Part shown: positions 8,905 to 51,745 of the stretch, one piece after another
Numbering within the stretch: position 1 is the first letter of the stretch
Layout of the letters: each line of letters starts with the position of its first letter
Source of the DNA: Bacteroidales bacterium
GTDB lineage: Bacteria > Bacteroidota > Bacteroidia > Bacteroidales > UBA4181
Direction: 5' to 3'
DNA length: 64,000 nt
Assembly (NCBI GenBank): GCA_031271175.1
Contig: JAISWE010000099.1
Coordinates: 30,639-94,638, forward strand
Notes under the pieces: model-generated
What the model was told of the DNA's origin: nothing
Seen by the model: only the letters and a program-made list of their open reading frames with translations
Database searches by the model: none
Made by a program: the position numbers and the translations under genes

Positions 8905-9332
8905 GCCTGCTGGAACGACTGAAGACTTTCGTCAAAGCCCAAACCTCATCATTGATAGGCGGGACATGCGATTACCTGATCATGATCGGACTGACGGAAC
9001 TTTTCGGCCTGCACTATACGCTTTCCATCGTGATAAGCGGCATTGTGGGAGCTGTTGTCAATTTTTCCATCAATAAGACATGGGCTTTTTACCGTCGGGA
9101 AAAGGCCTACCGGTATTCGCTCGTACAGCAGTTGGCGCGATTTATCATTGTGGTGCTCAACAGTATTGCGCTGAAAACCGCCGCTACCTATTTTTTTACG
9201 GAAACCGTGCATATTGACTACAGGATAAGCCGCTTGACGGCAGACCTGCTGGTCTCCCTGCTCTTTAACTACATGCTGCAACGCCACTGGGTATTTAAAA
9301 GCGAGAAAATTAAAAAGGGATACAGGAACTGA
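8901..9332 (+). CDS. GtrA family membrane protein
   Basis: 143 aa with four predicted TM helices. LIGGTCDYLIMIGL...VNFSINKTWAF...HWVF resembles GtrA-like proteins. ATGA overlap with the upstream transferase. Confidence 0.75.
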   Translation: MSLLERLKTFVKAQTSSLIGGTCDYLIMIGLTELFGLHYTLSIVISGIVGAVVNFSINKTWAFYRREKAYRYSLVQQLARFIIVVLNSIALKTAATYFFTETVHIDYRISRLTADLLVSLLFNYMLQRHWVFKSEKIKKGYRN

Positions 9333-9383
9333 CCCGTCATCCTCGCCGGATGCGGTCGGTCATTTATCGGTTGTAAAAATACC
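9329..9383 (+). repeat. 55-bp direct repeat X, copy A (starts at the gtrA stop codon)
   Basis: ctgacccgtcatcctcgccggatgcggtcggtcatttatcggttgtaaaaatacc recurs at 10400-10454 with 2 substitutions. It contains an imperfect dyad (GACCCGTCATCC/GGATGCGGTC). Confidence 0.85.
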
Positions 9384-9474
9384 TTGATGAATCTGATAGC
9401 CCAGCGTGACGGTCTGCCGCCCCCCTCGCCCCCCCGCCCTGAAGGCGTAAACCACCCCGTCCACGATGAATTTT

Positions 9475-9573
9475 TCCTGTTTTTCTCACTTTTTTCTCGT
9501 TGTTTTCAGGTCAGTTTAATAGCAATTAGTTCCAGAAAGTTTTTCGTTTTTTGGTGTCCCATTGAGAAAAACA
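9475..9573 (+). repeat. ~100-bp direct repeat Z, copy A, abutting the tandem array
   Basis: cctgtttttctcacttttttctc...gttgttttcaggtcagtttaatagcaattagttcc...ggtgtcccattgagaaaaacagg recurs at 10100-10212, where it carries an 11-bp internal insertion and a few substitutions. Confidence 0.85.
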
Positions 9574-10060
9574 GGAAAAGACGTTTCCTCATCTGTAGAA
9601 AGGCTATTTTTTGAAAAAAGGCGTTTTCTCATCCGTAGAAAGGCTATTTTTTGAAAAAAAGACGTTTCATCATCTGTGGGAAGGCTATTTTTTGAAAAAA
9701 GGCGTTTCCTCATCTGTAGAAAAGCTATTTTTTGAAAAAAAGACGTTTCCTCATCTGTGGGAAGGCTATTTTTTGAAAAAAAGACGTTTCATCATCTGTG
9801 GGAAGGCTATTTTTTGAAAAAAGACGTTTCCTCATCTGTAGAAAAGCTATATTTTGAAAAAAAGACGTTTCCTCATCTGTGGTAAGGCTATTTTTTGAAA
9901 AAAGGCGTTTTCTCATCTGTAGAAAAGCTATTTTTTGAAAAAAAGACGTTTCATCATCTGTGGGAAGGCTTATTTTTTGAAAAAAGGCGTTTTCTCATCT
10001 GTGGAAAGGCTTATTTTTTGAAAAAGGCATATTCATGCGTTGCAGGAAGGTTTTATTATT
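9574..10060. repeat. tandem minisatellite: 11 units of 39-42 bp plus one degenerate 12th unit
   Basis: Consensus unit is GAAAAAAAGACGTTTCCTCATCTGTGGGAAGGCTATTTTTT. I wrote out and counted 11 units totalling 446 bp (9574-10019). Two sub-variants are interspersed (GGCGTTTTCTCATC..TAGAAA vs GACGTTTCMTCATCTGTGGGAA). There are no unique spacers. Confidence 0.9.
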
Positions 10061-10099
10061 CGATGCCTCTCCATTCGTTGAGATAAAGGCCATTTTTCT

Positions 10100-10212
10100 C
10101 CTGTTTTTCTCACTTTTTTCTCACTTTTTCCTCGTTGTTTTCAGATCAGTTTAATAGCAATTAGTTTCCATAAAGTTTTTTGTTTTTTGGGTGTCCCATT
10201 GAGAGAAATAGG
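10100..10212 (+). repeat. ~100-bp direct repeat Z, copy B
   Basis: See 9475-9573. It is followed by a 31-bp segment Y (10218-10248, gaaggtgtaaaccacgccttccacgatgaat). A homologous Y segment precedes copy A at 9440-9470. Confidence 0.85.
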
Positions 10213-10399
10213 CCCCCGAAGGTGTAAACCACGCCTTCCACGATGAATCTTTTGTTGTCAAACTCCTTTCGGTCTGCATCGCGCAAGGCCATCTTTCTGG
10301 GAACTGTCACCTCCGCCGTATCGGTTAATTTTTTTCGCGATGTTTTTTTTCACTGCATGGAGATAATCCCAAGAAATTTTATATCTTTCCTCTGTTGTA

Positions 10400-10454
10400 C
10401 TGACCCGTCATCCTCGCCGGATGCGGTCTGTCGTTTATCGGTTGTAAAAATACC
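10400..10454 (+). repeat. 55-bp direct repeat X, copy B
   Basis: ctgacccgtcatcctcgccggatgcggtctgtcgtttatcggttgtaaaaatacc, compared with 9329-9383. Confidence 0.85.
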
Positions 10455-23171: not shown

Positions 23172-26100
23172 TTAGAAATTTAAATTGACTCCGAAATTGA
23201 TAATTCTGTTGGGTGGATATTTGGATCCCTGCCCGTCGTCTATTTCCGGGTCAAAGAGTTTGAAGTCAGAAAAAGTAAGCAGATTGATGCCCGAACAGTA
23301 GAAATGCAGGCTTTGGATGCTCAGTTTTTCCGTTAACCGCTTTGGTATGGTATAACCGATGGCGGCATTTTTCAGTCTCATATAACTGATGTCTCTTTGC
23401 CAGAAGGTCGATTGCAGGTTATTGTTGGTATTGGCGCCTATGGTTGCTCTCGGATAGCGGGCGGCAGGATCCGGATTGTCCAGTCGCCATGAATGATAAA
23501 ATACATCTTCATAAAAACCCGAAGTGGCTTCACCTGCTCCGGAGAATGTTCTGAAGGCGGTTCCGCTCAGGAACTTGGTAGTGTGCGATACGCCTTGGAA
23601 CAATACCGACAGGTCGAAATTTTTCCACTGGAAGGAAGCCCCAAAACCATACGTGATTTCAGGCACCCAGCTATGTCCGACAGGCACCTGGTCATACGAA
23701 TTGATCACCCCGTCGCCGTTGATATCCTTGTACTTGATGTCGCCTATCCGCAAATCTCCATATTGAGGGGGGCTTTGGTCGATTTCTTCCTGCGAGGCAA
23801 AGAGTCCCATGGCTACATATCCGGTCTGTTGATCGACCGGTAACCCGATTTTGGTCATGTACGGATATTCCGGAATGGGCTGGGCATTTTTGAGAATTTT
23901 GCTGCGGTTGTAGGTAAAGTTGCCTCTAAAGGATATTTGAAAATCGCCCACTGTGTGGAAGGATTCCAGTTGCGTCTCCATTCCCCGATTCAGCACTTCG
24001 CCGATATTCACATAAGGGAGTGTAGCAATTCCCGCAATGTAGGTCAAATCATTCCGTTGCAGGAATATCCCCGTGCGGTAATCGCGGAAATAATCCGCCT
24101 GAACATTGATTTTTCCCCAAAGCGACAATTCCATGCCCAAATCAAATTTCTGAGATTTCTCCCATGATACGTTAGGGCTGCCGAAATTGGATATTTGGGC
24201 GCCCGTTTTGCTTGTTGACTGTTGCCCTAATGAGTAAGCATTAGCCACATTAAGGTTGAAGGTGTCGTGGTAAATGAAACGGGCAATCTCATCGTCATCG
24301 TCATCTTTGATCTTATCATTTCCCACCAGCCCGTAAGATCCTCTGATTTTCAATTTGCTGATTACATCGGTGAGCGACTTGAAAAAGCCTTCGTTGGAAA
24401 TCAACCATCCCAAAGCAATGGAAGGGAAGAATCCGAAACGATGGTCTGGGCTAAAATTTTCCGATCCGTTGTATCCGAAATTACCTTCCAGCAAATAGCG
24501 GTCATCGAATCCATAGGTGAGGCGACCTGCAATACCCTGATTTCGATAGGGAACCGACCGATCAATCTTATCGGCCTGTACATAGCGCATGGATTTCTGG
24601 TTGTACAGAAAAAGCGCTCCTACCCTGTGTACACCGAAGTTCCTGGAATAGGTTAACGAACCTTCAAGATAGAAGGTCTTTTTCCCCGAAGAGCTTTTGC
24701 TGTAACCCAGTGTTTCCGTACCGTTCGACACTACCGGATTGAAAAGCAGCGCCCCGTCGTCATCCCTGCCGTAAGCATAGAAAGTGTTGGGCGTACGGGA
24801 ATAGTTGACGGTTTGCCGCGTTAGCATGTCCCATGAAAATTTGATGTTGGCTTCAAGCCCCGGGATGATCAGTTCGCTGAAATCCTGCTTTAATCCCAAC
24901 AGCGCCTGGGCATTGTTCCAGTATTCATTCTTGAATCCGTCCTGTGTCAACAGGTTGTAGGGATTTTGCCCTCCTCCGGGATATGCGGAAAGCGATCCGT
25001 CGGAGTAAACGGCAGGCACCAGGCCGGGAGCATAAGTAAACGCTCTCGACCAGATGTCTTCCTTGTTGCTGTTGGGCGATACGCGCGTTTCGTAGATATT
25101 GGACAGATTGACGTTGACAACAGTGGTTGGCGTCAGGCTGACGTCAACGTTGGAACGGAAATTAAACTTGTCGTAATCAATAGAGGTATTGTAGCGTTGC
25201 GTATGGTCTTCCTTGTAGATACTTCCTTCATGATAGTAAGTCCCGGATATGAAATAGCGGGCGATACTCCCTCCTCCGCTGATGTTGGCATTGACGCGCT
25301 GGTTGTGGGCTACGGGCTTGAACATTTTGTTTACCCAGTTCACATTCGGGTACAGGTCGGGGTCTTCGCCGGAACTCAGTTTTGCAATGGTGGCATCGTC
25401 AAAAAGATGCGCTCCTCCGGAAGTGTAACCGTACGTTTCATTGTAAAGCTCAGCGTATTGCGCCGCATCTGCCATTTTGGGCAGTCTGACGGGAGAAACG
25501 AAACCGGTTTCCGCACGTACCGTCACCTTGGCAGGCCCCTGTTCGCCGCTTCTCGTGGTGATCAAAAGCACGCCATTGGCGCCGCGTACTCCGTAGATGG
25601 CAGTGGCGGTTGCATCCTTCAAGATGGAAAAGGTTTCGATGTCTTCAACATCTACCAGATCCAGTTCGCGTTCAATGCCGTCAACCAGCACCAGCGGTTT
25701 GTTGGATGCGCTGTTGGTGGTACTCACCCCGCGTATCCAGAACTGCGCACTTGACCCCGGTTCGCCCGACCGTTGAATGGATATTACGCCGCCCAATTGT
25801 CCTGCCAGCACGGTGGATATTTGACCGGCAGGTAGTTTCAATTGGGCAGGGTTGAGAGAAGTAATCGCTCCTACCACACTCTCTTTCTTTTGCACGCCGT
25901 AGCCCACTACCACCACTTCTTCCAATTCGGCCGTTGATTCGTTCAAAACGAAATCAATTACCGTTCGGTCACCGACCACCTCTTCTACGGTGGTATAACC
26001 GACAAAAGAAACGGTAAGCACCGGATTTTTCACATTCACCGGATGAATAACGTATTCTCCATTGATATCGCTGGTGGTTCCGAGAGAGGTTTCCTTGACC

Positions 26101-26267
26101 CAAATCGAAGCGCCCGGCAATGGAGAGCCGGAATCATCCATGACTCGACCTTTCACCGTATGGTCTTGAGCAGACACCGGTAAAACAAGCATTGCGCTCA
26201 GCAGCGCCGTCATTATTGCAGACAGTATCTTCCGTCCTGTGGAATTATTATATCCAGTATTGATCAT
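23172..26267 (-). CDS. SusC/RagA family TonB-linked outer-membrane transporter (pair 1)
   Basis: Carboxypeptidase-regulatory-like N-domain (VKGRVMDDSGSPLPGASIWVKETSLGTTSDINGEYVI), plug (VVVGYGVQKKESVVGA...IRG), TIGR04056-like barrel, and the last residue is F. Confidence 0.92.
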   Translation of the reverse strand: MINTGYNNSTGRKILSAIMTALLSAMLVLPVSAQDHTVKGRVMDDSGSPLPGASIWVKETSLGTTSDINGEYVIHPVNVKNPVLTVSFVGYTTVEEVVGDRTVIDFVLNESTAELEEVVVVGYGVQKKESVVGAITSLNPAQLKLPAGQISTVLAGQLGGVISIQRSGEPGSSAQFWIRGVSTTNSASNKPLVLVDGIERELDLVDVEDIETFSILKDATATAIYGVRGANGVLLITTRSGEQGPAKVTVRAETGFVSPVRLPKMADAAQYAELYNETYGYTSGGAHLFDDATIAKLSSGEDPDLYPNVNWVNKMFKPVAHNQRVNANISGGGSIARYFISGTYYHEGSIYKEDHTQRYNTSIDYDKFNFRSNVDVSLTPTTVVNVNLSNIYETRVSPNSNKEDIWSRAFTYAPGLVPAVYSDGSLSAYPGGGQNPYNLLTQDGFKNEYWNNAQALLGLKQDFSELIIPGLEANIKFSWDMLTRQTVNYSRTPNTFYAYGRDDDGALLFNPVVSNGTETLGYSKSSSGKKTFYLEGSLTYSRNFGVHRVGALFLYNQKSMRYVQADKIDRSVPYRNQGIAGRLTYGFDDRYLLEGNFGYNGSENFSPDHRFGFFPSIALGWLISNEGFFKSLTDVISKLKIRGSYGLVGNDKIKDDDDDEIARFIYHDTFNLNVANAYSLGQQSTSKTGAQISNFGSPNVSWEKSQKFDLGMELSLWGKINVQADYFRDYRTGIFLQRNDLTYIAGIATLPYVNIGEVLNRGMETQLESFHTVGDFQISFRGNFTYNRSKILKNAQPIPEYPYMTKIGLPVDQQTGYVAMGLFASQEEIDQSPPQYGDLRIGDIKYKDINGDGVINSYDQVPVGHSWVPEITYGFGASFQWKNFDLSVLFQGVSHTTKFLSGTAFRTFSGAGEATSGFYEDVFYHSWRLDNPDPAARYPRATIGANTNNNLQSTFWQRDISYMRLKNAAIGYTIPKRLTEKLSIQSLHFYCSGINLLTFSDFKLFDPEIDDGQGSKYPPNRIINFGVNLNF
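25884..26239 (-). repeat. 356-bp tract 97.8% identical to 38688-39043 (5' end of the SusC gene)
   Basis: Hand alignment gives 8 substitutions in 356 bp and no indels. The tract covers the signal peptide, the carboxypeptidase-like domain and the TonB-box region. The rest of the two SusC proteins is highly divergent. Confidence 0.9.
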
Positions 26268-35849: not shown

Positions 35850-38800
35850 TTAGAATCCGATTCTTAATCCGATGTTATAGCGCCGCACAAGGGGATAAAG
35901 CGAAGCCGAATTGCTTTCCGGATCGATATATTTGTTGAAATTGGTAAATGTCAACAGATTGTTGGCGTTCACATAGATTTGACACTTGGACATGCCGACT
36001 TTACCGATAAGTCTTTGATTGAAAGTGTAGGCGACTTCCATGTTTTTCAGCCTGAGATAGGAAGCGTTCCGATAGTTGTAGGTCGTGCCGCGTTGATTGT
36101 ACTGGCTGCTCGCAGTGAGTGCATGAAGGGTTGGTTTTGAAGCTGTTAAAGCCGTTTCGGGCGTCCAGCGGTTCAGTACGTCCGGGTTGGCAAAATAGTT
36201 TTCCACCTGTCCGAAGCGCAAATCCCACAACAATTCATCCGCCACATTTTTGTAAACGCCCAGCACACCGTACCACATCATTGAAAAGTCGAAATTCTTC
36301 CACGAAAAACCCATAGACCATCCATAGGTGGTACGCGGATAATTCTGCTTTTCCATCGGCATGCGGTCGTTGAGGTCATCGTAGATGATGGTGCCGTCTG
36401 CATTGTAGTCGATATACATAAAGTCGCCGGGCAACAGTGTGGTTTGCTCAACTGCCGAGGCATAATTATAGATGTCGTCTAATGACCCGTAGTACCCGGC
36501 CACGCCCAGGCGGGTTTGATAATCGATGGGTTTGCCTGCCTTCCTGAGGTATTCTTCCATCATAAAGGGGTCGTTACGCTCAACGACACGGTTTTCATTG
36601 GTGGAGAAATTGACCTTGATCCAGTAACGGAAGTCATCGCTTGTTTGGGCATTCCAGCCGAGTTCTATTTCCAGCCCGTGCGTTTTTGTCTCTCCAAGAT
36701 TGGCCTGTGGATCCTTGAACCCAAACCAGGCGGGGGTTATCTGCGACATGATGATACCCTTCCTGTTTTCCTTGAAGAAGTCCGCATTTCCGGTAAGGCG
36801 GTTGTCGAACAGGCCGAAATCGACGCCGAGGTTTTGTTTGTAGGCCGTTTCCCAGGTGGCGTTCACGTTGGCCGTTCCGTCTTCAACGATGATCGGCCCG
36901 TAGCTGTTGGCAGTGGTCGAACCGAGTTGCAGGTTCGGACTGGTGCTGGCGAGTTTGTATTTCTGAACGTATTCGAAAAAATCGGCGTTCCGGTCAAAGC
37001 CTACAGTGCCGTACGAATAGCGTATTTTAAGATTGCTGAGCGCTTGGGAAACAACGCTGTTCTTGATAAAGGATTCTTCAGAGATTCGCCATGCCACCGA
37101 GTAGGAAGGGAAAAACTTGAAACGCCTGTCGCGTGCAAACCTCATGGAACCGGTATATGCGCCATTGAGTTCTAACAGGTAACGTTCCGCATAACCGTAG
37201 GTCACGCGGGTTACCCATGCTTCTTCACGCTCCTGGTATTTCATGTTTACGGTGGCGCCGTCCAGCAGTTTGTCGATCTGGTTGCGGTCGAATACACCCA
37301 GCGCGGTAACGGCGTGTTTGCCGAAGGTGCGGGCATAGTTAACGGATGCTTCATATTTAATCCTGCGTTCATAGCCTCCACCGGTGATGTTATCGTATGA
37401 AACTTCGGGTCTTTCGCCCTGCCAGTTGGCAGGATTGGTCGGGAAACGGATATTTTCGATCAGTTCGTATCCTCCATCCGGAAGCGGTTGGGTGTAGTCG
37501 TACTTGCGGTAATACCTGATGTTTGCCTCGCCAAACGAACCGGCGCCGAAATTGCTGCCCTTGGCCTTTTGTATGCGCGACTGGCTTTCGTTGGCGGTGG
37601 TGAAGGAAAATTTCGCCTGTGCACTAAGCCCTTGGGTAATAAAATTGAGGTTCTGTTTCAGTCCCAAATCGACAAAGTTCTGGTAGGATTTGAACATCCG
37701 CTGTCCATGGTCGAAACTTTCGCGAAGATTACTCATCCCGTCAATGGCAGCGCCATACTCGCCATCGCTGTAGCGTACCGGGAACAGGTGGCGCGGATCG
37801 TTGTACAGTTCCCTGAAAAAGCTTGCCTCGTAGCTTCCGTCGAGACGGTAACCGGGCTGGTTGCGGTTTCCCTGCTTGCCGGCAAGGTTAACCGAGAGAA
37901 CGGTCGACGTGGTGAGGTTGAAATCCAGGTTGGTGCGCCAGTTGTAACGCTTGAAGTTGTGTGTGGGATCGAATATTTCGTTTTTTTCGGTACGGTAAAT
38001 ATCTCCTTCATTCAGAAAGGCAAACGACACGAAATACTTCACAAAGTTGCTTCCACCGCGGACATTGAGATTGTACTGCTGCGAAAATCCCAAGGGTTTG
38101 ATCATCTCTTTCCACCAGTCCACTTCGGGGAAATAGTCGTTGTCGGGACCGTAGTTGCCCGTAGCGAAAGCGTTTTCCCAAGCGGCAATTGTCGATTCGG
38201 GAATCAGCATGTTCCACGCCCCATCGTTGGCGACGGCTTCGTTCCACATTTTCATGGAGGTGACATAGTCGGCATATTCGGGTTTCATGGTGGGCTGCTT
38301 GAAGCCGAAGTTGGCGCTGATGCTGATGGAAGGCCGTTGATTCAAACCGCGCTTGGTAGTGATGATGATCACGCCGTTACCGCCCTTGACGCCATAGACA
38401 GCGGTGGCGGCGGCATCCTTCAGCACCGATATCGATTCGATCTCGTTGGGATCAACGTCATTGAAATCGCGCTCTACGCCATCTACGAGACAGAGCGGAT
38501 CGGTATTGTGCCACGTTCCCTTGCCCCGTATAATCAGCTTGGCTGCATCGTCGCCCGGCTTGGATGTACTGGAAATGGCTACCACCCCCGGCATTAACCC
38601 CTGAATGGCCTGCGACACATTGGTCACCGCTCCTGTTTTCAACAAATCCTCTCCTTTTGCCTGCGCAACGGAACCGATCATGGTGGTTTTCTTTTGCACG
38701 CCGTAGCCCACTACCACCACTTCTTCCAATTCGGCCGTTGATTCGTTCAAAACGAAATCAATTACCGTACGGTCACCGACCACCTCTTCTACGGTGGTAT

Positions 38801-39071
38801 AACCGACAAAAGAAACGGTAAGCACCGGATCCTTCACATTCACCGGATGAATAACGTATTCTCCATTGATATTGCTAGTGGTTCCGAGAGAGGTTTCCTT
38901 GACCCAAATCGAAGCGCCCGGCAATGGAGAGCCGGAATCATCCATGACTCGACCTTTCACCGTACGGTCTTGAGCTGACATCGGTAAAACAAGCATTGCG
39001 CTCAGCAGCGCCGTCATTATTGCAGACAGTATCTTCCGTCCTGCAGAACAGATATAATATTTGTTGTTCAT
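35850..39071 (-). CDS. SusC/RagA family TonB-linked outer-membrane transporter (pair 3)
   Basis: The N-terminal ~120 aa are nearly identical to the SusC at 23172-26267 and the remainder is divergent. Ends in IGLRIGF. Its ATG overlaps the sulfatase stop (ATGA at 39068-39071). Confidence 0.92.
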   Translation of the reverse strand: MNNKYYICSAGRKILSAIMTALLSAMLVLPMSAQDRTVKGRVMDDSGSPLPGASIWVKETSLGTTSNINGEYVIHPVNVKDPVLTVSFVGYTTVEEVVGDRTVIDFVLNESTAELEEVVVVGYGVQKKTTMIGSVAQAKGEDLLKTGAVTNVSQAIQGLMPGVVAISSTSKPGDDAAKLIIRGKGTWHNTDPLCLVDGVERDFNDVDPNEIESISVLKDAAATAVYGVKGGNGVIIITTKRGLNQRPSISISANFGFKQPTMKPEYADYVTSMKMWNEAVANDGAWNMLIPESTIAAWENAFATGNYGPDNDYFPEVDWWKEMIKPLGFSQQYNLNVRGGSNFVKYFVSFAFLNEGDIYRTEKNEIFDPTHNFKRYNWRTNLDFNLTTSTVLSVNLAGKQGNRNQPGYRLDGSYEASFFRELYNDPRHLFPVRYSDGEYGAAIDGMSNLRESFDHGQRMFKSYQNFVDLGLKQNLNFITQGLSAQAKFSFTTANESQSRIQKAKGSNFGAGSFGEANIRYYRKYDYTQPLPDGGYELIENIRFPTNPANWQGERPEVSYDNITGGGYERRIKYEASVNYARTFGKHAVTALGVFDRNQIDKLLDGATVNMKYQEREEAWVTRVTYGYAERYLLELNGAYTGSMRFARDRRFKFFPSYSVAWRISEESFIKNSVVSQALSNLKIRYSYGTVGFDRNADFFEYVQKYKLASTSPNLQLGSTTANSYGPIIVEDGTANVNATWETAYKQNLGVDFGLFDNRLTGNADFFKENRKGIIMSQITPAWFGFKDPQANLGETKTHGLEIELGWNAQTSDDFRYWIKVNFSTNENRVVERNDPFMMEEYLRKAGKPIDYQTRLGVAGYYGSLDDIYNYASAVEQTTLLPGDFMYIDYNADGTIIYDDLNDRMPMEKQNYPRTTYGWSMGFSWKNFDFSMMWYGVLGVYKNVADELLWDLRFGQVENYFANPDVLNRWTPETALTASKPTLHALTASSQYNQRGTTYNYRNASYLRLKNMEVAYTFNQRLIGKVGMSKCQIYVNANNLLTFTNFNKYIDPESNSASLYPLVRRYNIGLRIGF
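38688..39043 (-). repeat. 356-bp tract 97.8% identical to 25884-26239
   Basis: See 25884-26239. The two copies are in direct orientation, 12.8 kb apart. Confidence 0.9.
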
Positions 39072-40558
39072 AAAATTATTTTTTCAAAGTCAAACGGAAA
39101 AGGTGCGGAATATTGATGTGCTTCCTGCATGATTTTCAGCATTTCCGCGACAATTTCCGGATGCTGTTCCGCTACATTATGTTGCTCACGGATGTCGTCG
39201 GAGAGGTCATACAGTTCGACAATCGTTTTTTGAGAATGATTGACATTCAGGCGGATCGCCTTCCATTCGGCTTTTCTCACCGCCATTTTTCCACCCTGTT
39301 CATGAAATTCCCAATAAAGGTATTCATGTTGTCGTTGTTTTTTCTTTCCGTACAATGTCGGAAGAAAAGATATGCCGTCCGTATTTTCCGGCGTTTTCGT
39401 TTTTGTCAGTTCGGCTAAAGTGGCCATCACATCCCAGAAAGCGGCGACATGTCGGTTCACGCTGCCTGCTTTTATTTTTGACGGATACCATGCGATGAAA
39501 GGCACCCGTATGCCACCTTCGTACAAATCGCGTTTTACGCCGCGTAGCGTACCGGAACTTTTAAAATAAGCGGGGTCGGCGCCGCCTTCAACGTGAGGCC
39601 CATTGTCACTGGTAAAGATGACAACCGTGTTCCTGTCTATTCCCAATTCTTTCAAAGTATGGCAAATATCCCCCACGTAAGCGTCCAATCGTGTCACCAT
39701 GGCAGCAAAATCGGTTTTGGGGTGCGATGTGCTTCCATAGGGGCCTTTCCGGAAAGAAGGGCCATTGTCCACTCCCTGATAAGGTTTTTCCGAAAATTTT
39801 CCGTCATACATGGCGAAAATGCTATCATCAGGATTGACCAATTCGGCGTGGGGAATCACATAAGTAAGATATGCGAAAAACGGTCTGTCTTTGTGGGTGC
39901 GGATGAAGCGGATGGCGTTTTCGTGTATCATATCTTGCGCATACTGTCCTGTGGCATTGCCTCTGTTGCCTTCCAACCACACGGTATCCTGGTTGCTCCA
40001 CAGGTAGTAGGGGTAGTAATGGTGAGCCAGCGCCTGACTGTTGTACCCGAAAAAGCTATCGAACCCTTGTTGATGCGGAGCGCCTTCCGTTGATGGGGCG
40101 CCCAATCCCCATTTGCCGAAACACCCTGTTGCATAGCCATTGTATTTCAGCATTTTACTGATAGTATATGTTCCTTCCGGGTGAGGATAATCGCCGCCAC
40201 GGAAATGTTTATTGCCGCGAACGGGAGTATGTCCGGTGTGCAAGCCGGTAATCAGCGAAGAACGGGAAGGAGCGCTGACCGTGCAACCGGCATAAAATTG
40301 AGTGAATTTCATTCCTTCGGCTGCCAAACGGTCGATATTCGGCGTTTTGATTATTTCCTGTCCGTAACAGCCCAAGTCTCCATAACCCAAATCATCCGCC
40401 ATAATGAAGATGATGTTGGGGCTTTCAGCATGGTTGGGCTGGCACGCTCTGGCTACCACGGGACATATTACGGTGATTACTATCGCGCGACAGATACCCT
40501 TTGCGGTGATGTCCGAAAGCGGGACGATCCTACTTATATTTCTTACCCTTACTTTCAT
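39068..40558 (-). CDS. sulfatase (arylsulfatase / N-acetylgalactosamine-6-sulfatase-like), Ser-type active-site motif, chimeric 5' end
   Basis: IIFIMADDLGYGDLGCYG, GCTVSAPSRSSLITG (S-x-P-x-R with Ser at the formylglycine position), GKWGLG and FTSDNGP. The first ~30 codons derive from repeat module R (40461-40558). Confidence 0.88.
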   Translation of the reverse strand: MKVRVRNISRIVPLSDITAKGICRAIVITVICPVVARACQPNHAESPNIIFIMADDLGYGDLGCYGQEIIKTPNIDRLAAEGMKFTQFYAGCTVSAPSRSSLITGLHTGHTPVRGNKHFRGGDYPHPEGTYTISKMLKYNGYATGCFGKWGLGAPSTEGAPHQQGFDSFFGYNSQALAHHYYPYYLWSNQDTVWLEGNRGNATGQYAQDMIHENAIRFIRTHKDRPFFAYLTYVIPHAELVNPDDSIFAMYDGKFSEKPYQGVDNGPSFRKGPYGSTSHPKTDFAAMVTRLDAYVGDICHTLKELGIDRNTVVIFTSDNGPHVEGGADPAYFKSSGTLRGVKRDLYEGGIRVPFIAWYPSKIKAGSVNRHVAAFWDVMATLAELTKTKTPENTDGISFLPTLYGKKKQRQHEYLYWEFHEQGGKMAVRKAEWKAIRLNVNHSQKTIVELYDLSDDIREQHNVAEQHPEIVAEMLKIMQEAHQYSAPFPFDFEKIIL

Positions 40559-40852
40559 AAAACTCTAATTTTCACTAACAAAAGCACATTCACTTATTCA
40601 TTGGTTGATGCGTGCTGAAACGATTTTTCAACGGCAAAAATAAATACTGTTTTTTTATTTTGCAATAAAAAATTCATAAAAATTATTAAATTTTGATAAT
40701 TATTTTATAATTATTTGAAACTCAGTATATATATTGTATTAAATTTTTTGCTTGAATGGATGAGATGAGTGAAATTTTGCAGTTAAAAAAGACGGGGCAA
40801 CAGAAAGTCATTGGGAGTTCCGACAGATTTTATTTATTATCATGTTAATACA
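40461..40852 (-). repeat. repeat module R, copy 1 (AT-rich promoter-like region, leader, ATG and ~32 codons)
   Basis: About 390 bp align by eye at roughly 85-90% identity with 51198-51582 in the same orientation. The module includes the sulfatase start codon at 40556-40558. Confidence 0.85.
40635..40642 (-). promoter_or_regulatory. candidate -7 box (TAnnTTTG, minus strand) inside R copy 1
   Basis: Plus-strand caaaaata is TATTTTTG on the minus strand, about 77 nt upstream of the sulfatase ATG. R copy 2 has TATCTTTG at the equivalent position. Confidence 0.35.
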
Positions 40853-40929
40853 TAATGATATTACCATCTTAAAAATCGATTTTTCGCCATGGCGGGAGAA
40901 AACTTCATATCCAATTGCAGGCAATATCC

Positions 40930-41585
40930 TCATTTCGTGTTCAACAGGCGTTTCAATGCTGCAATTTGTTTGGCCTGTGCTTCAAGCACTCTGTCTTTTT
41001 CTTCAAGCGCTTTCTCTTGTCCTTCGATAATACGCTTCTGCTTCCTTTTCTATCTCCTCGCGCTCCTTCGGGTCGGCTACCATCTCATTCAGCACGGAGG
41101 CGATAAAACGGATGTCTTCATCATCCGACCTGTAGATGTACTGTTTGCTCACTTCCGAATCTTCCTCAATGAAATGAGCCTGCTCAAAAAGACTCAGCAG
41201 TTCGTTCAGCTTTGTACCGTAACGCCCGGTGGCAATCCTGCCTGCCTGAATAACATAGCTGTCATGGGTGAGCTTCTCCACAAACGGAGACTTTGATGCA
41301 ATCGAACCTTTGTTTATCATGTCCCGATAATGCCGCTCCACCTTAATGCAGGGGCTTTCTATGCCGGCAAGCCTGCCGCCCAAAATATAAATCGTCGTTA
41401 TGGGGAAGCACAATGTCCTCGCCGTTGATCCTGTCCACTCTCCGGTACTGCTCGGCAAGGTAGTTGCGAAACCGTTTCACGTCCGTTTCATCCCACGATT
41501 TCTGCACTTCTATCAAAATCTTTTTCCACTCGCCAGCTTTCGTTTCAATAGTAGCCATAAAGTCGATCCGAAATATGGAATAGCC
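40930..41585 (-). pseudogene. decayed PD-(D/E)XK nuclease family transposase (PDDEXK_2 / Rpn-like): 5'-truncated with at least 2 frameshifts
   Basis: Three frames together read YSIFRIDFMATIETKAGEWKKILIEVQKS...FRNYLAEQYRRVDRINGEDIVLP | ITTIYILGGRLAGIESPCIKVERHYRDMIN...FVEKLTHDSYVIQ...LLSLFEQ | KRIIEGQEKALEEKDRVLEAQAKQIAALKRLLNTK*. One frameshift is at a G4/C4 run (41402-41405). The N-terminal ~80-100 aa are absent. Confidence 0.75.
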
Positions 41586-41588
41586 GAT

Positions 41589-41782
41589 CTTCGGCTGCCA
41601 AACGGTCGATATTCGGCGTTTTGATGATTTCCTGTCCGTAAACAGCCCAAGTCTCCATAACCCAAATCATCCGCCATAATGAAGATGATGTTGGGACTTT
41701 CAGCATGGTTGGGCTGGCACGCTCTGGCTGCCACGGGACAGATACCGGCAAACAAAACCGGCGATATTTTAAAACTTTTCAT
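41589..41782 (-). pseudogene. orphan 5' fragment of a sulfatase gene (duplicate of 40305-40455), frameshifted and truncated
   Basis: MKSFKISPVLFAGICPVAARACQPNHAESPNIIFIMADDLGYGDLGC, then out of frame. 152 bp match the intact sulfatase with 3 substitutions and a 1-nt insertion. Its ATG overlaps the GH43 stop (ATGA at 41779-41782). Confidence 0.8.
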
Positions 41783-49498: not shown

Positions 49499-50884
49499 TC
49501 ATTGTATAGTTAATTTGCGAATACATTTGTTGCCGCGGTCGGCGATATAGATAGTGCCGTCACGCCTGTCTATGGCCAGCCCCCAGGGAGCGTTGAACAT
49601 GGCGTCGTCCGGATTGCCATCCCGAAGATCGGCTTTGCCGGCAATGCCTACGATGGTTGTTACTATGCCTTCGGGGGATATCTGCCGGATACAATGGTTT
49701 CCCTGTTCGGCAATGACCAGATTGCCTTCGTTATCCAACACCATTTGCCGAGGCTGCCTGAACAGCGCCTCTTCCCTGCCACCGTCCTTCCATCCCGCTT
49801 CTCCCGATTTTCCCGCATATACGCCGGTTTCGCCCGTCAGTACGTCAAAATAATGAATACAGTGCTGACTGGTGCTGGCGCAGTACATCCTGGACTTGTT
49901 CACCGGATCGAAGACAAGGTAGGTGTCGCTATTGAGCGGATTACACTGGTCTTTCAAACCGTCTCCATCCACATCCATTGATTCGCCTATGCGCGTTTTC
50001 GGATTGAACCTGATCAGGTAACCGTCGCGGTTGGAACGGAAATAAATCATGCCGTCCAAGCTGCATATCGCAAATGAGTGCTTAAACTGGTTGACGGTAA
50101 AGTCCAGCATACCAGAGGCAATATCATTTGCGGTGGGATGCAGTACTTTTCTGGTTCGCGGCGCCCACTGGAGTTCAGGGTCGAATTCGAAATACGTGTC
50201 GAGATAAGTACTGCCTCCGTCCGCCGGAACAAGAATGACTTTTCCCTCCATATCCGTGCTTGGCGCATTGGGTTTGTTGGGACATGCAAACAGCTGCGTC
50301 ACCGTGCGGTTTTGCTGGTCGATCAGCAGTACTGCGGACGTGGATTCGTGGGCAAGGAACAAATTCCCTTCGTTGTCTATCGTCAGGTAATTGGGATTGT
50401 TAAAGGTGGCTTCACCGAAAGAACCGGTTTTGAGAGCGGTTGTTCCCTTTTGCCCGACAATGGTTTCCACTAATCTGTTGGTATGGTACACATATTTTTG
50501 GCTAAAGACACTGGAGTCGTTGCCTATTACCAATGAAATCACGCAGGTGTCTCCGGGCTGTCGCGGCGTAATCGCCAGCACCCTTCCGTTACTGCATCCT
50601 ACCACAGGAGCGGCTTTGTGGTTGAAATATACTTTAACGGCTTTGGGATCGTTACCCAGGTTTTCGCCTTTCAGAATTACCTGCGTGGCCATTCCTCCTT
50701 CAACAGGCGTGAAGGACTCTCGCAGGACAGCCTGTCCCGGATCGTAGGACGGCGTATTGTCGGTTTTGGAACTTGTCGATTCTTCGCATGAAATGAGATA
50801 GAACAGACAGAAAGCACACATCAAGCGGCTTCCCTTGCTTAGTATTGCTTTTTTTACTTTTTTTTGAAATCTAATTCGGTTCAT
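49499..50884 (-). CDS. IPT/TIG domain plus NHL-repeat beta-propeller lipoprotein (first gene of this PUL)
   Basis: Lipobox FYLISCEE. FTPVEGGMATQVILKGENLGNDPKAVKVYFN (IPT/TIG). NHL-type repeats such as LVIAEQGNHCIRQISPEG and IYIADRGNKCIRKLT. Confidence 0.8.
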   Translation of the reverse strand: MNRIRFQKKVKKAILSKGSRLMCAFCLFYLISCEESTSSKTDNTPSYDPGQAVLRESFTPVEGGMATQVILKGENLGNDPKAVKVYFNHKAAPVVGCSNGRVLAITPRQPGDTCVISLVIGNDSSVFSQKYVYHTNRLVETIVGQKGTTALKTGSFGEATFNNPNYLTIDNEGNLFLAHESTSAVLLIDQQNRTVTQLFACPNKPNAPSTDMEGKVILVPADGGSTYLDTYFEFDPELQWAPRTRKVLHPTANDIASGMLDFTVNQFKHSFAICSLDGMIYFRSNRDGYLIRFNPKTRIGESMDVDGDGLKDQCNPLNSDTYLVFDPVNKSRMYCASTSQHCIHYFDVLTGETGVYAGKSGEAGWKDGGREEALFRQPRQMVLDNEGNLVIAEQGNHCIRQISPEGIVTTIVGIAGKADLRDGNPDDAMFNAPWGLAIDRRDGTIYIADRGNKCIRKLTIQ

Positions 50885-51137
50885 ATTACTTATATTTATT
50901 AGGTTACATATTTATTGATTTACTTATATTTATTGATTATAAAAATTATCACATGATTATACGATTATATCTTTTTCTCTTTTCTCTTTTTCTCGAGCGC
51001 AGTCAAATTTTTCGTCTGAAACGATATTTTTCCGCCTTTTGTCGCATTTCGTCATGAAGGTAAACATGGAATATGCGGCAGTTGAACGGAAAGGCCTCGC
51101 CGAAAGGAAACTCCCTTTTATTCTTTATTGTTTTTTC

Positions 51138-51175
51138 TCCTCCTCCCGTATCCTTACATGGATACGGGAGGAGGA
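51138..51175. other. perfect 16-bp GC-rich hairpin in the PUL leader
   Basis: tcctcctcccgtatcc-ttacat-ggatacgggaggagga. T6 lies directly 5' on the plus strand and there is no U-tract on the minus (operon) strand. The loop holds the ATG-TAA end of the R-derived mini-ORF. Confidence 0.85.
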
Positions 51176-51285
51176 AACAAGCTATACTTACCCTTTGCGG
51201 TGATTACTACCACGCGAAAAGTACCCTTTGCGGTGATGTCCGAAAGTGAGACAATCCTACTTATATTTCTTACCCTTACTTTCAT
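51154..51285 (-). other. 43-codon mini-ORF started by the R-module ATG (coding status doubtful)
   Basis: MKVRVRNISRIVSLSDITAKGTFRVVVITAKGKYSLFPPPVSM*. Its first ~21 codons are homologous to the N-terminus of the chimeric sulfatase. Confidence 0.2.
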
Positions 51286-51582
51286 AAAACTCTAATTTTC
51301 ATTAACAAAAGCACATTTACTTATTCATTGCTTGCTGCTTGCTGAAACGATTTTTCAACGACAAAGATAAATACTATTTTTTTATTTTGCAAGAAAAAAT
51401 TCATAAAAATTCTTAAATTTTGAGAGTTATTTTATAACTATTTGAAAATCAATGTATATCTTGCATAAAAATTTTTGCTTGACTGGATGAGATGCGTGAA
51501 ATCTTGCAGCTGAAAAAGACGGGGCCACAGAAAGCCACCGAGAGCGCCGATAGGTTTCATTTATTATTATGGTAATATATCA
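51198..51582 (-). repeat. repeat module R, copy 2 (upstream of the IPT/NHL-SusC PUL)
   Basis: Aligns with 40461-40852. It lies 314-698 nt upstream of the 50884 start codon. Confidence 0.85.
51362..51369 (-). promoter_or_regulatory. candidate -7 box (TAnnTTTG, minus strand) inside R copy 2
   Basis: Plus-strand caaagata is TATCTTTG on the minus strand, at the same position as the box in R copy 1. Confidence 0.35.
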
Positions 51583-51617: not shown

Positions 51618-51666
51618 AAGTCCCGCAGGGACGACACTTTATTAACCGAATGCTTTAGCTTACGGA
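51618..51666. repeat. REP-like hairpin repeat, unit 1
   Basis: aagtcccgcagggacgacactttattaaccgaatgctttagcttacgga contains the GTCCC-GCA-GGGAC hairpin. It is repeated at 51697-51745 with 3 substitutions. Confidence 0.8.
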
Positions 51667-51696: not shown

Positions 51697-51745
51697 AAGT
51701 CCCGCAGGGACGATACTTTATTAACCGTATGCTTCAGCTTACGGA
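51697..51745. repeat. REP-like hairpin repeat, unit 2
   Basis: aagtcccgcagggacgatactttattaaccgtatgcttcagcttacgga. Confidence 0.8.

Follow-up and report, generated by a model that had tools for sequence, protein, structure and literature searches.

Segmental duplication with illegitimate junctions and microhomology-mediated template switching are known processes of DNA rearrangement. In Bacteroides, rearrangements can also put a ready-made promoter in front of promoterless genes, as promoters borne on insertion sequences (ISs) do for cfiA, nim and erm (PMC6927303). In Bacteroidales, discrete invertible promoter segments lie upstream of surface genes and of polysaccharide utilization loci (PULs) (PMC4747536, PMC8748976). 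The primary-sigma consensus of the Bacteroidota consists of TTTG at -33 and TAnnTTTG at -7 (PMC7366714), with TG, TTG and TGTG accepted as variants of the -33 element (PMC6927303). Rpn nuclease genes are reported to have no defined ends and to spread together with adjoining DNA by tandem duplication, not by transposition, and they are not considered transposases (PMC10400941). Here we analyse a locus that bears on each of these systems. It lies in a 64,000-nucleotide stretch of contig JAISWE010000099.1 from a Bacteroidales bacterium (assembly GCA_031271175.1, positions 30,639 to 94,638), which we call the window and whose own numbering is used throughout. In this window a 386-nt promoter-and-leader segment, hereafter the module, is present twice within a PUL array, once at the array head (copy 2) and once inside the 5' end of a sulfatase gene (copy 1).

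The two copies are direct repeats, 386 nt each, lying 10.7 kb apart (Table 1). They are 87.8% identical over their whole length, with 47 substitutions and no indels (blastn, E ~1e-137), and a sensitive self-search found no third copy in the 64-kb window. Divergence is uneven: 7-8% in a central core and 14-18% in the distal parts. A sequence-only reading of the window had already picked out this repeat, with ends within 1-7 nt of ours and an identity of 85-90% by eye. It had also noted a very AT-rich segment (GC content 0.13 over 40676-40760), a conserved -7-like box, the position of copy 2 some 310-700 nt upstream of an IPT/NHL operon (311-696 nt upstream of the ATG at 50884) and the outer flanks, a dead nuclease or "transposase"-like gene beside copy 1 and two 49-nt repetitive extragenic palindromic (REP)-like units beside copy 2. 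All of these hold. Our interpretation is a different one. We consider it quite probable that copy 2 is the native promoter region of a single array and that copy 1 is a paralogue of it made by ordinary local rearrangement, not a mobile or regulatory element of a new class. In fact, the case that the sequence-only reading had set against its own proposal, what is left of a single local segmental duplication without further copies, turns out to be a good description of how copy 1 arose, although the promoter is nevertheless probably functional.

What had been taken for two different PUL operons is one array split by a rearrangement scar. Pfam assignments define a co-directional run on the minus strand that starts with SusC, SusD and a 1,880-aa type-IX-secreted protein and then reaches copy 2. 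It continues with IPT/NHL, SusC, SusD, a BT_3044-like gene and GH43 as far as copy 1, and then with the sulfatase and three more SusC/SusD pairs with accessory genes down to 14686. Over the roughly 36 kb between the IPT/NHL start (50884) and 14686, all intergenic gaps are of 95 nt or less, apart from that in which copy 1 lies. At this very point the GH43 stop overlaps the original sulfatase ATG (ATGA at 41782-41779, within AATGAA at 41783-41778), and the two genes were translationally coupled before the insertion. No recognisable regulator gene is present in the window, as the sequence-only reading had also observed.

The scar itself is a 1,120-bp insert near the start of the sulfatase gene, running from 41588 to 40469 on the operon strand and made up of a nuclease-like pseudogene, a 76-nt spacer and copy 1. 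It is bracketed by a 155-bp duplication of sulfatase sequence, absent from the sequence-only reading, which marks copy 1 as part of an insertion. This duplication ends at 40468, exactly where the module homology starts, and here copy 1 is bounded by a rearrangement junction; at its other end the homology to copy 2 simply gives out, at 40853. At junction B the parental sequences share 3 nt (CCG), and at junction A there is no clear microhomology. Both junctions are illegitimate (0-3 nt of microhomology), and the 155-bp flanking duplication far exceeds any transposase footprint. Upstream of the insert, the ATG at 41782 opens MKSFKISPVLFAGICPVAARACQPNHAESPNIIFIMADDLGYGDLG, a normal sulfatase N-terminus that is broken off at 41589 and resembles the short signal or lipoprotein-type N-termini of the close sulfatase homologues that we inspected (66-74% identical), P0012 and P0014 among them. 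None of these homologues carries a module-like N-terminal peptide.

Downstream of the insert, the 1.4-kb sulfatase body contains no stops or frameshifts, as against about 2.9 stops and 5.2 indels expected, by a rough estimate, had it been neutral since the event. Because the reading frame is intact despite some eight disabling changes expected under neutrality, the sulfatase would, on this rough measure, still be under selection. An export-signal sequence, MKVRVRNISRIVPLSDITAKG-ICRAIVITVICPVVARA-CQ, is supplied only when translation starts at the module ATG. A periplasmic sulfatase needs an export signal and a start at V34 has none, and we therefore infer that the chimeric ATG is used as the sulfatase start. 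The gene call of the Joint Genome Institute (JGI) for this protein (P0001, 463 aa, 100% identical) ignores the module ATG and starts at the GTG of V34, with no signal peptide. In the source record, annotation is likely to be missing or wrong for both the severed 5' fragment (41589-41782) and the nuclease pseudogene. As to relatives with an empty site, exact look-ups of the GH43 protein, P0001 and P0243 gave no record, and the closest sulfatase homologues (74% and 71% identical) lie in unrelated contexts. Loci anchored on SusD (47-50% identical) keep IPT/NHL-SusC-SusD-BT3044 and have neither GH43 nor the sulfatase.

The evidence that copy 2 is native comes from orthologous loci. The first gene after copy 2 has orthologues at 81% (L012), 73% (L013) and 70% (L014) protein identity. 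In L013, from a metagenome-assembled genome (MAG) of Tannerella sp., a stretch of about 105-118 nt upstream of IPT/NHL-SusC is 83-86% identical to the centre of both modules and includes TTGCAAATAAAAAAACAGTATTTATCTTTG; the adjacent coding DNA, at 73.8%, is less conserved than this core. A three-way alignment places the core at about -60 to +20, ending in an almost invariant GTTGAAAAATCGTTTYAGCA. When a profile of the three core sequences was run against the window and 15 fetched loci, only these three sites matched (E 4e-24 to 3.9e-29). The distance from the -7 box to the ATG is 523 nt in L013 and 478 nt in the window, and the distal part of the module, the leader with its ATG and the 16-nt ATCACCGCAAAGGGTA repeat are absent from L013. 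Since the core stands at the head of the orthologous operon in another species, copy 2 is best regarded as the copy in its original place.

Several points weigh against this reading. L013 is the single orthologous locus that carries the core. L012, the closest relative, has no module within 779 nt upstream of the gene, and L014 has the gene in mid-array, behind a sulfatase; array heads have therefore been reshuffled between lineages. Moreover, the L013 contig starts about 20 nt before the expected nuclease stop (AACACGAAAT is shared), and the upstream gene cannot be read there. Finally, all of the evidence for the rearrangement comes from one MAG contig.

The core has the make-up of a promoter. 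A sigma-70 consensus scan is uninformative for Bacteroidota. The TAnnTTTG consensus has exactly one match per module copy on the minus (operon) strand, TATTTTTG in copy 1 and TATCTTTG in copy 2, and these are the only intergenic consensus -7 boxes on the operon strand between 63.5 and 14.7 kb of the window. In both copies and in L013 the -33 element is the TTG variant, not the full TTTG, separated by a 20-nt spacer, which falls in the expected range of about 19-21 nt. Copy 2 is thus a predicted sigma-ABfr-type promoter at the array head, the activity of either copy being judged from consensus and conservation. Like described sigma-ABfr promoters (PMC7366714; PMC6927303), both copies and L013 combine TTG, a 20-nt spacer and TAnnTTTG with an AT-rich tract upstream. 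Unlike them, the native copy has a predicted 5' untranslated region (UTR) of about 470 nt, whereas the median in B. thetaiotaomicron is 32 nt and 13.5% exceed 100 nt (PMC7366714). A further difference is that the 20 nt or so 3' of the box are as conserved as the boxes, for which the consensus gives no reason.

This segment, GTTGAAAAATCGTTTYAGCA, lies directly 3' of the -7 box and is near-invariant at 40608-40628, 51335-51355 and about 314-334 of L013. It spans about +1 to +20 and holds the inverted pentamers TGAAA-N5-TTTCA. The segment might serve as an operator, or its sequence might be constrained as the first part of the transcript. A similar string, GAAAAATATCGTTTCAG, occurs in the leader at about 51040-51024. 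As the core recurs ahead of an orthologous operon in a second species, it is plausible that the two halves of the array share a cis element that could co-regulate them. The sequence-only reading had suggested as much, and this part of its proposal gains from the good promoter match; the leader and ATG that it had included in the module are not conserved.

In fact, the distal part of the module looks quite unlike the core. In each copy an ATG follows 76 nt after the -7 box (40558 and 51285) and opens MKVRVRNISRIV, then P or S, then LSDITAKG, so the leader of about 75 nt and its peptide are as had been described. Nothing suggests a structured or portable unit: the leader folds no better than shuffles on either strand (z -1.06 to +1.77), the modules have no Rfam match even at E<=1, and the ATG region cannot be aligned in L013. 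The short-ORF (open reading frame) peptide has no homologues among 1.84 billion representatives, apart from two marginal matches (E ~1e-6) to repeats in large proteins. The idea of a start-codon module is not borne out either, the ATG and peptide being unconserved at L013 and, in copy 1, forming a chimeric N-terminus that has replaced the native signal peptide. The motif ATCACCGCAAAGGGTA has three matches in the window, with 0.48 expected by chance.

Between copy 2 and the first gene, outside the repeat, the leader contains a strong hairpin. A near-perfect hairpin of about 15 bp is found in all three orthologous leaders, some 100-250 nt before the IPT/NHL start. Its 5' arm is of the CCUCC type and its 3' arm of the GGAGG type, and the distal stem differs from leader to leader, with GUAUCC/GGAUAC in the window and UCAUUUC/GGAAAUGA in L013. 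For an intrinsic terminator, the flanking runs have the wrong orientation on both strands. Pair counts understate the conservation of these hairpins, as the automatic alignment put L013 out of register. This hairpin could be a conserved 5'-UTR element.

The pseudogene in the insert belongs to a large family. With intact relatives as queries, tblastn finds homology from IGYSI (41588) through three frames to the stop codon at 40932-40930, and the product aligns with a family of proteins of 300-350 aa, from about residue 75 to their C-termini. This family has 2,227 matches (best 73-81% identical), mainly in Tannerella, Prevotellaceae and Bacteroidales MAGs, where these multi-copy genes often sit at contig ends. 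NCBI gives two members the name Rpn family nuclease/putative transposase. PF04754 is matched weakly by 3 of 24 members (best E=1.5e-05) and PF12784 by one; tested against PF04754/COG5464, P0124 reached 12.6 bits for a cut-off of 21, and most members fall below the curated thresholds. The window fragment itself has no Pfam match, and a structure model of the family gave no significant fold match when the PD-(D/E)XK fold was sought. "Rpn-like" is thus a reasonable label and not demonstrated membership. The family C-terminus is a long predicted helix (residues ~247-350 of P0130) with variable numbers of EEKDKALEEQAK-type repeats, of which the window fragment retains the C-terminal part, frameshifted (40930-41031). 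It recalls the variable C-terminal RpnS antitoxin domain of E. coli Rpn (PMC10400941).

Compared with described Rpn nucleases (PMC5350276, PMC10400941), then, the family is similarly multi-copy, with weak PF04754/PF12784 matches and a variable coiled-coil C-terminus, and the window region likewise has no defined ends and was apparently duplicated with neighbouring DNA. The differences are that the window gene is a dead fragment and that most members score under the curated thresholds. The tandem-duplication behaviour of Rpn genes fits the structure of the window, without implicating the nuclease itself. We also considered the module as the regular 3' flank of this nuclease family, a possibility that we rejected, as in four contigs with intact members (L005-L008) the homology extends no further than the stop codon.

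How could the insert have formed? Part of the answer may lie in the spacer, which copy 2 lacks. A block of the copy 1 spacer (40884-40855) matches L013 66-94 with a score of 31, which none of 2000 shuffles reaches (mean 17, maximum 30), and the two stretches are collinear, each some 155-165 nt before the core. The private flank of copy 2, with its two REP-like units, has no match in L013. On this contrast, the simplest reading is that copy 1 probably keeps the ancestral head of the array, in the order nuclease gene, spacer, module, leader. We propose that the sulfatase gene, 10.7 kb downstream, received a copy of part of this head and that the distal flank of copy 2 was remodelled later. A 1,120-bp piece, comprising the 3' three-quarters of the nuclease gene, the 76-nt spacer and the initial 386 nt of promoter and leader, would have been joined by illegitimate recombination, in an event that would also have duplicated 155 bp of the target sulfatase. 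In one route, the stretch between mid-nuclease and sulfatase nt 194 would first have been duplicated in tandem, after which the DNA between the module end and sulfatase nt 40 would have been deleted; in another, a single replicative template switch would have been enough. Both fit the structure, each with a proposed order of steps. As in segmental or tandem duplication and in microhomology-mediated template switching, the insert derives from nearby sequence, carries a 155-bp target duplication and has 0-3 nt of microhomology at its junctions.

The event had two consequences. The original sulfatase start and signal peptide were severed, the gene now probably opening at an ATG that by chance lies in frame in the duplicated leader; and the downstream half of the array gained its own copy of the head promoter, and with it, probably, the same control despite the intervening pseudogene. 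Copy 1 thus probably acts as an internal promoter under array-head control. An older, third donor copy was considered and rejected. The raw divergence of the module (12.2%) does exceed that of the sulfatase duplication (3.2%, p=0.001), but the difference is gone at synonymous sites, where the sulfatase duplication has diverged by 0.093 (confidence interval 0.02-0.25) as against 0.122 for the module (p=0.78). As the two cannot be distinguished, one local event suffices.

Table 1. Features of the module copies and of the rearranged sulfatase locus (window coordinates).
Feature	Coordinates	Strand	Remarks
Module copy 1	40468..40853	-	probable paralogue of the copy 2 region; 3' end fused to sulfatase coding sequence; 87.8% identical to copy 2
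Module copy 2	51195..51580	-	probable native PUL-array upstream region: promoter and initial ~160 nt of long leader; homologous to copy 1
Predicted promoter core, copy 1	40608..40720	-	nhmmer E=3.4e-27; 85.8% identical to L013 230-333
Predicted promoter core, copy 2	51335..51447	-	~-60/-95 to +20; nhmmer E=3.9e-29 (three-sequence profile); 83.1% identical to L013 220-334
-7 box TATTTTTG, copy 1	40635..40642	-	fits TAnnTTTG consensus (PMC7366714)
-33-type TTG, copy 1	40663..40665	-	20 nt upstream of -7 box; TTG is an accepted -33 variant (PMC6927303)
-7 box TATCTTTG, copy 2	51362..51369	-	same box TATCTTTG in L013 at 304-311
-33-type TTG, copy 2	51390..51392	-	20 nt upstream of -7 box
16-nt motif ATCACCGCAAAGGGTA, copy 1	40495..40510	-	one unit; second unit cut by junction B
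ATCACCGCAAAGGGTA, two exact units 33 nt apart	51189..51237	-	3' end of copy 2
Strong hairpin	51133..51180	-	leader between copy 2 and first gene; outside repeat; analogues at L012 621-677 and L013 ~693-733
Spacer	40854..40929	-	76 nt between nuclease pseudogene stop and copy 1; absent from copy 2
Rpn/YhgA-like PD-(D/E)XK-type pseudogene	40930..41588	-	5'-truncated, two frameshifts, ~74 N-terminal residues gone
Sulfatase segment duplicate, upstream	41589..41743	-	155 bp; 96.8% identical to 40315-40468; pS=0.093, pN=0.008
Sulfatase segment duplicate, downstream (predicted functional)	40315..40468	-	5' part of full sulfatase ORF
Orphaned original sulfatase 5' end	41589..41782	-	opens MKSFKISPVLFAGICPVAARACQ; frameshifted; ATG overlaps GH43 stop
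Module-derived 30 codons (MKVRVRNISRIVPLSDITAKGICRAIVITV)	40469..40558	-	fused in frame to sulfatase; chimeric N-terminus, unlike related sulfatases
Sulfatase body from ancestral codon 14	39068..40468	-	intact; Pfam Sulfatase E=7.3e-57; 74% to closest homologue, full length

Whether copy 1 does anything for the cell is where the readings part most. It could be an inert scar with no consequential promoter activity. The genes behind it would then depend on read-through transcripts that start at the array head, and the sulfatase would be either translated from the V34 GTG or non-functional. The JGI call, which uses V34, and the lack of conservation of the leader and ORF part in L013 would agree with this, and the copies are young enough (about 9-12% divergence) for the boxes to have been retained by chance, the four substitutions between -40 and +1 missing the nine consensus positions by chance about 44% of the time. 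Yet the core is better kept than its flanks, there are no indels in a sequence rich in A/T runs, and the sulfatase frame is intact with no signal peptide from V34. With L013 as the outgroup, the core has acquired three derived changes in copy 1 and three in copy 2, and in these small numbers copy 1 does not appear to be decaying faster than the native copy. None of this is decisive; taken together it leads us to see copy 1 as more than a scar, and we hold the inert alternative to be unlikely. A bolder proposal goes the other way. The rearrangement, having broken the 36-kb unit, might also have repaired it adaptively by delivering a second regulated promoter together with a replacement sulfatase start and signal peptide, with both copies then kept by selection and GTTGAAAAATCGTTTYAGCA (TGAAA-N5-TTTCA) serving as the operator of an unlinked regulator for both halves. 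This would explain why indels are lacking, why the two copies have changed at equal rates and why the sulfatase is intact; we offer it tentatively and think it less likely than not.

The remaining explanations are far less probable. In one, which builds on a suggestion of the sequence-only reading, the 386-bp segment would be the end of a dispersed mobile or recombinogenic element, maybe Rpn-linked and with an outward promoter, both copies having been inserted. Copy 1 does adjoin an Rpn-like fragment of a family that is highly multi-copy in these MAGs and often found at contig ends, and IS-borne promoters are known in Bacteroides (PMC6927303). But the module does not follow the intact family members in the four contigs mentioned above, Rpn genes are themselves not considered transposases (PMC10400941), and a 155-bp duplication with 0-3 nt of microhomology is not transposase-like. 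The two copies have no terminal inverted repeats in common, only short, AT-rich, imperfect pairs that differ between them, and there is no short target-site duplication and no intact transposase. The search for further copies was also negative: the exact 22-mer CTTACCCTTACTTTCATAAAAC had no match in genome and metagenome contigs, the exact 21-mer ACCCTTTGCGGTGATGTCCGA none in metagenome contigs and three exact 18-20-mers none in viral contigs, all these words lying outside the conserved core of about 80 nt, so that L013-like relatives and copies differing within the 18-22-nt words would escape (one 20-mer of the viral scan overlaps the 3' edge of the core and differs from L013 at two bases). 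Plasmid and phage records had no match to the 1,120-bp insert (blastn, distant mode). Of the genome itself, the search covered the 64-kb window. As the core moreover sits at an orthologous operon head in another species, we judge a mobile element to be improbable. The window differs from described IS-borne promoters in having no transposase, terminal inverted repeats or short target-site duplication, and in that its promoter is the array's own, copied locally and known in two copies. An invertible promoter was ruled out, as no inverted repeats bracket the promoter; like the invertible systems, the module is a discrete promoter segment upstream of surface and glycan-utilisation genes, but its copies are direct repeats 10.7 kb apart with no shared flanking inverted repeats. 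Still more improbable is that the module has been conserved for the sake of a cis-regulatory RNA leader, leader peptide or small RNA encoded in it. A 48-nt block around the ATG is identical in both copies and ATCACCGCAAAGGGTA is repeated in copy 2, but the fold, Rfam and peptide searches described above were negative, and this part, unlike the promoter core, is unconserved in L013. Finally, a chimeric assembly path through repeats is barely credible. The locus is on a single MAG contig (105,748 bp) and the region has 155-bp and 386-bp repeats; the sequences that meet at the junctions, however, are unrelated and share no more than 3 nt, joins of a kind that graph assemblers do not make, and the repeat copies differ by 3-12%, enough for an assembler to separate them.

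The window contains further repeats. Immediately upstream of copy 2 lie the two REP-like units (51618-51666 and 51697-51745), 49 nt each and 94% identical, with no counterpart in the other fetched loci. On the minus strand they give sub-threshold matches over the full model of Rfam RF01687 (Acido-Lenti-1 sRNA), whose gathering score is 37: one unit scores 25.0 bits (E=0.0037), the other 17.2 bits. Two paralogous SusC genes of the array are 97.8% identical over 356 nt at their N-terminal ends (25884-26239 and 38688-39043), the remainder not being alignable as DNA, which suggests gene conversion or a shared recombination tract. An intergenic tandem array at about 9495-10062, upstream of a gene for a Cys/Met pyridoxal-phosphate (PLP) enzyme, has at least nine copies of 40/41-nt units, 67-92% identical. 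It is bracketed by 56-nt direct repeats (9328-9383 and 10399-10454, 96% identical; region 9328-10454) and also by 87-98-nt repeats (9471-9557 and 10106-10192).

Thus the locus is best read as a new case of processes already known, the duplication of a promoter by illegitimate recombination and the formation of a chimeric gene start, and it defines no new class of element. It carries a caution for annotation: the sulfatase start was called without its signal peptide, and an orphaned 5' fragment and a pseudogene are easily overlooked. For this uncultured, Tannerella-related lineage it provides a short conserved promoter core of about 80 nt, which could guide the mapping of transcription start sites or the search for a regulator. 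If copy 1 is active, the locus would be a clear natural example of how copying its own promoter can divide a very long PUL array into two units under unchanged control, and it would show that non-coding leader sequence can give a gene back its start codon and export signal.

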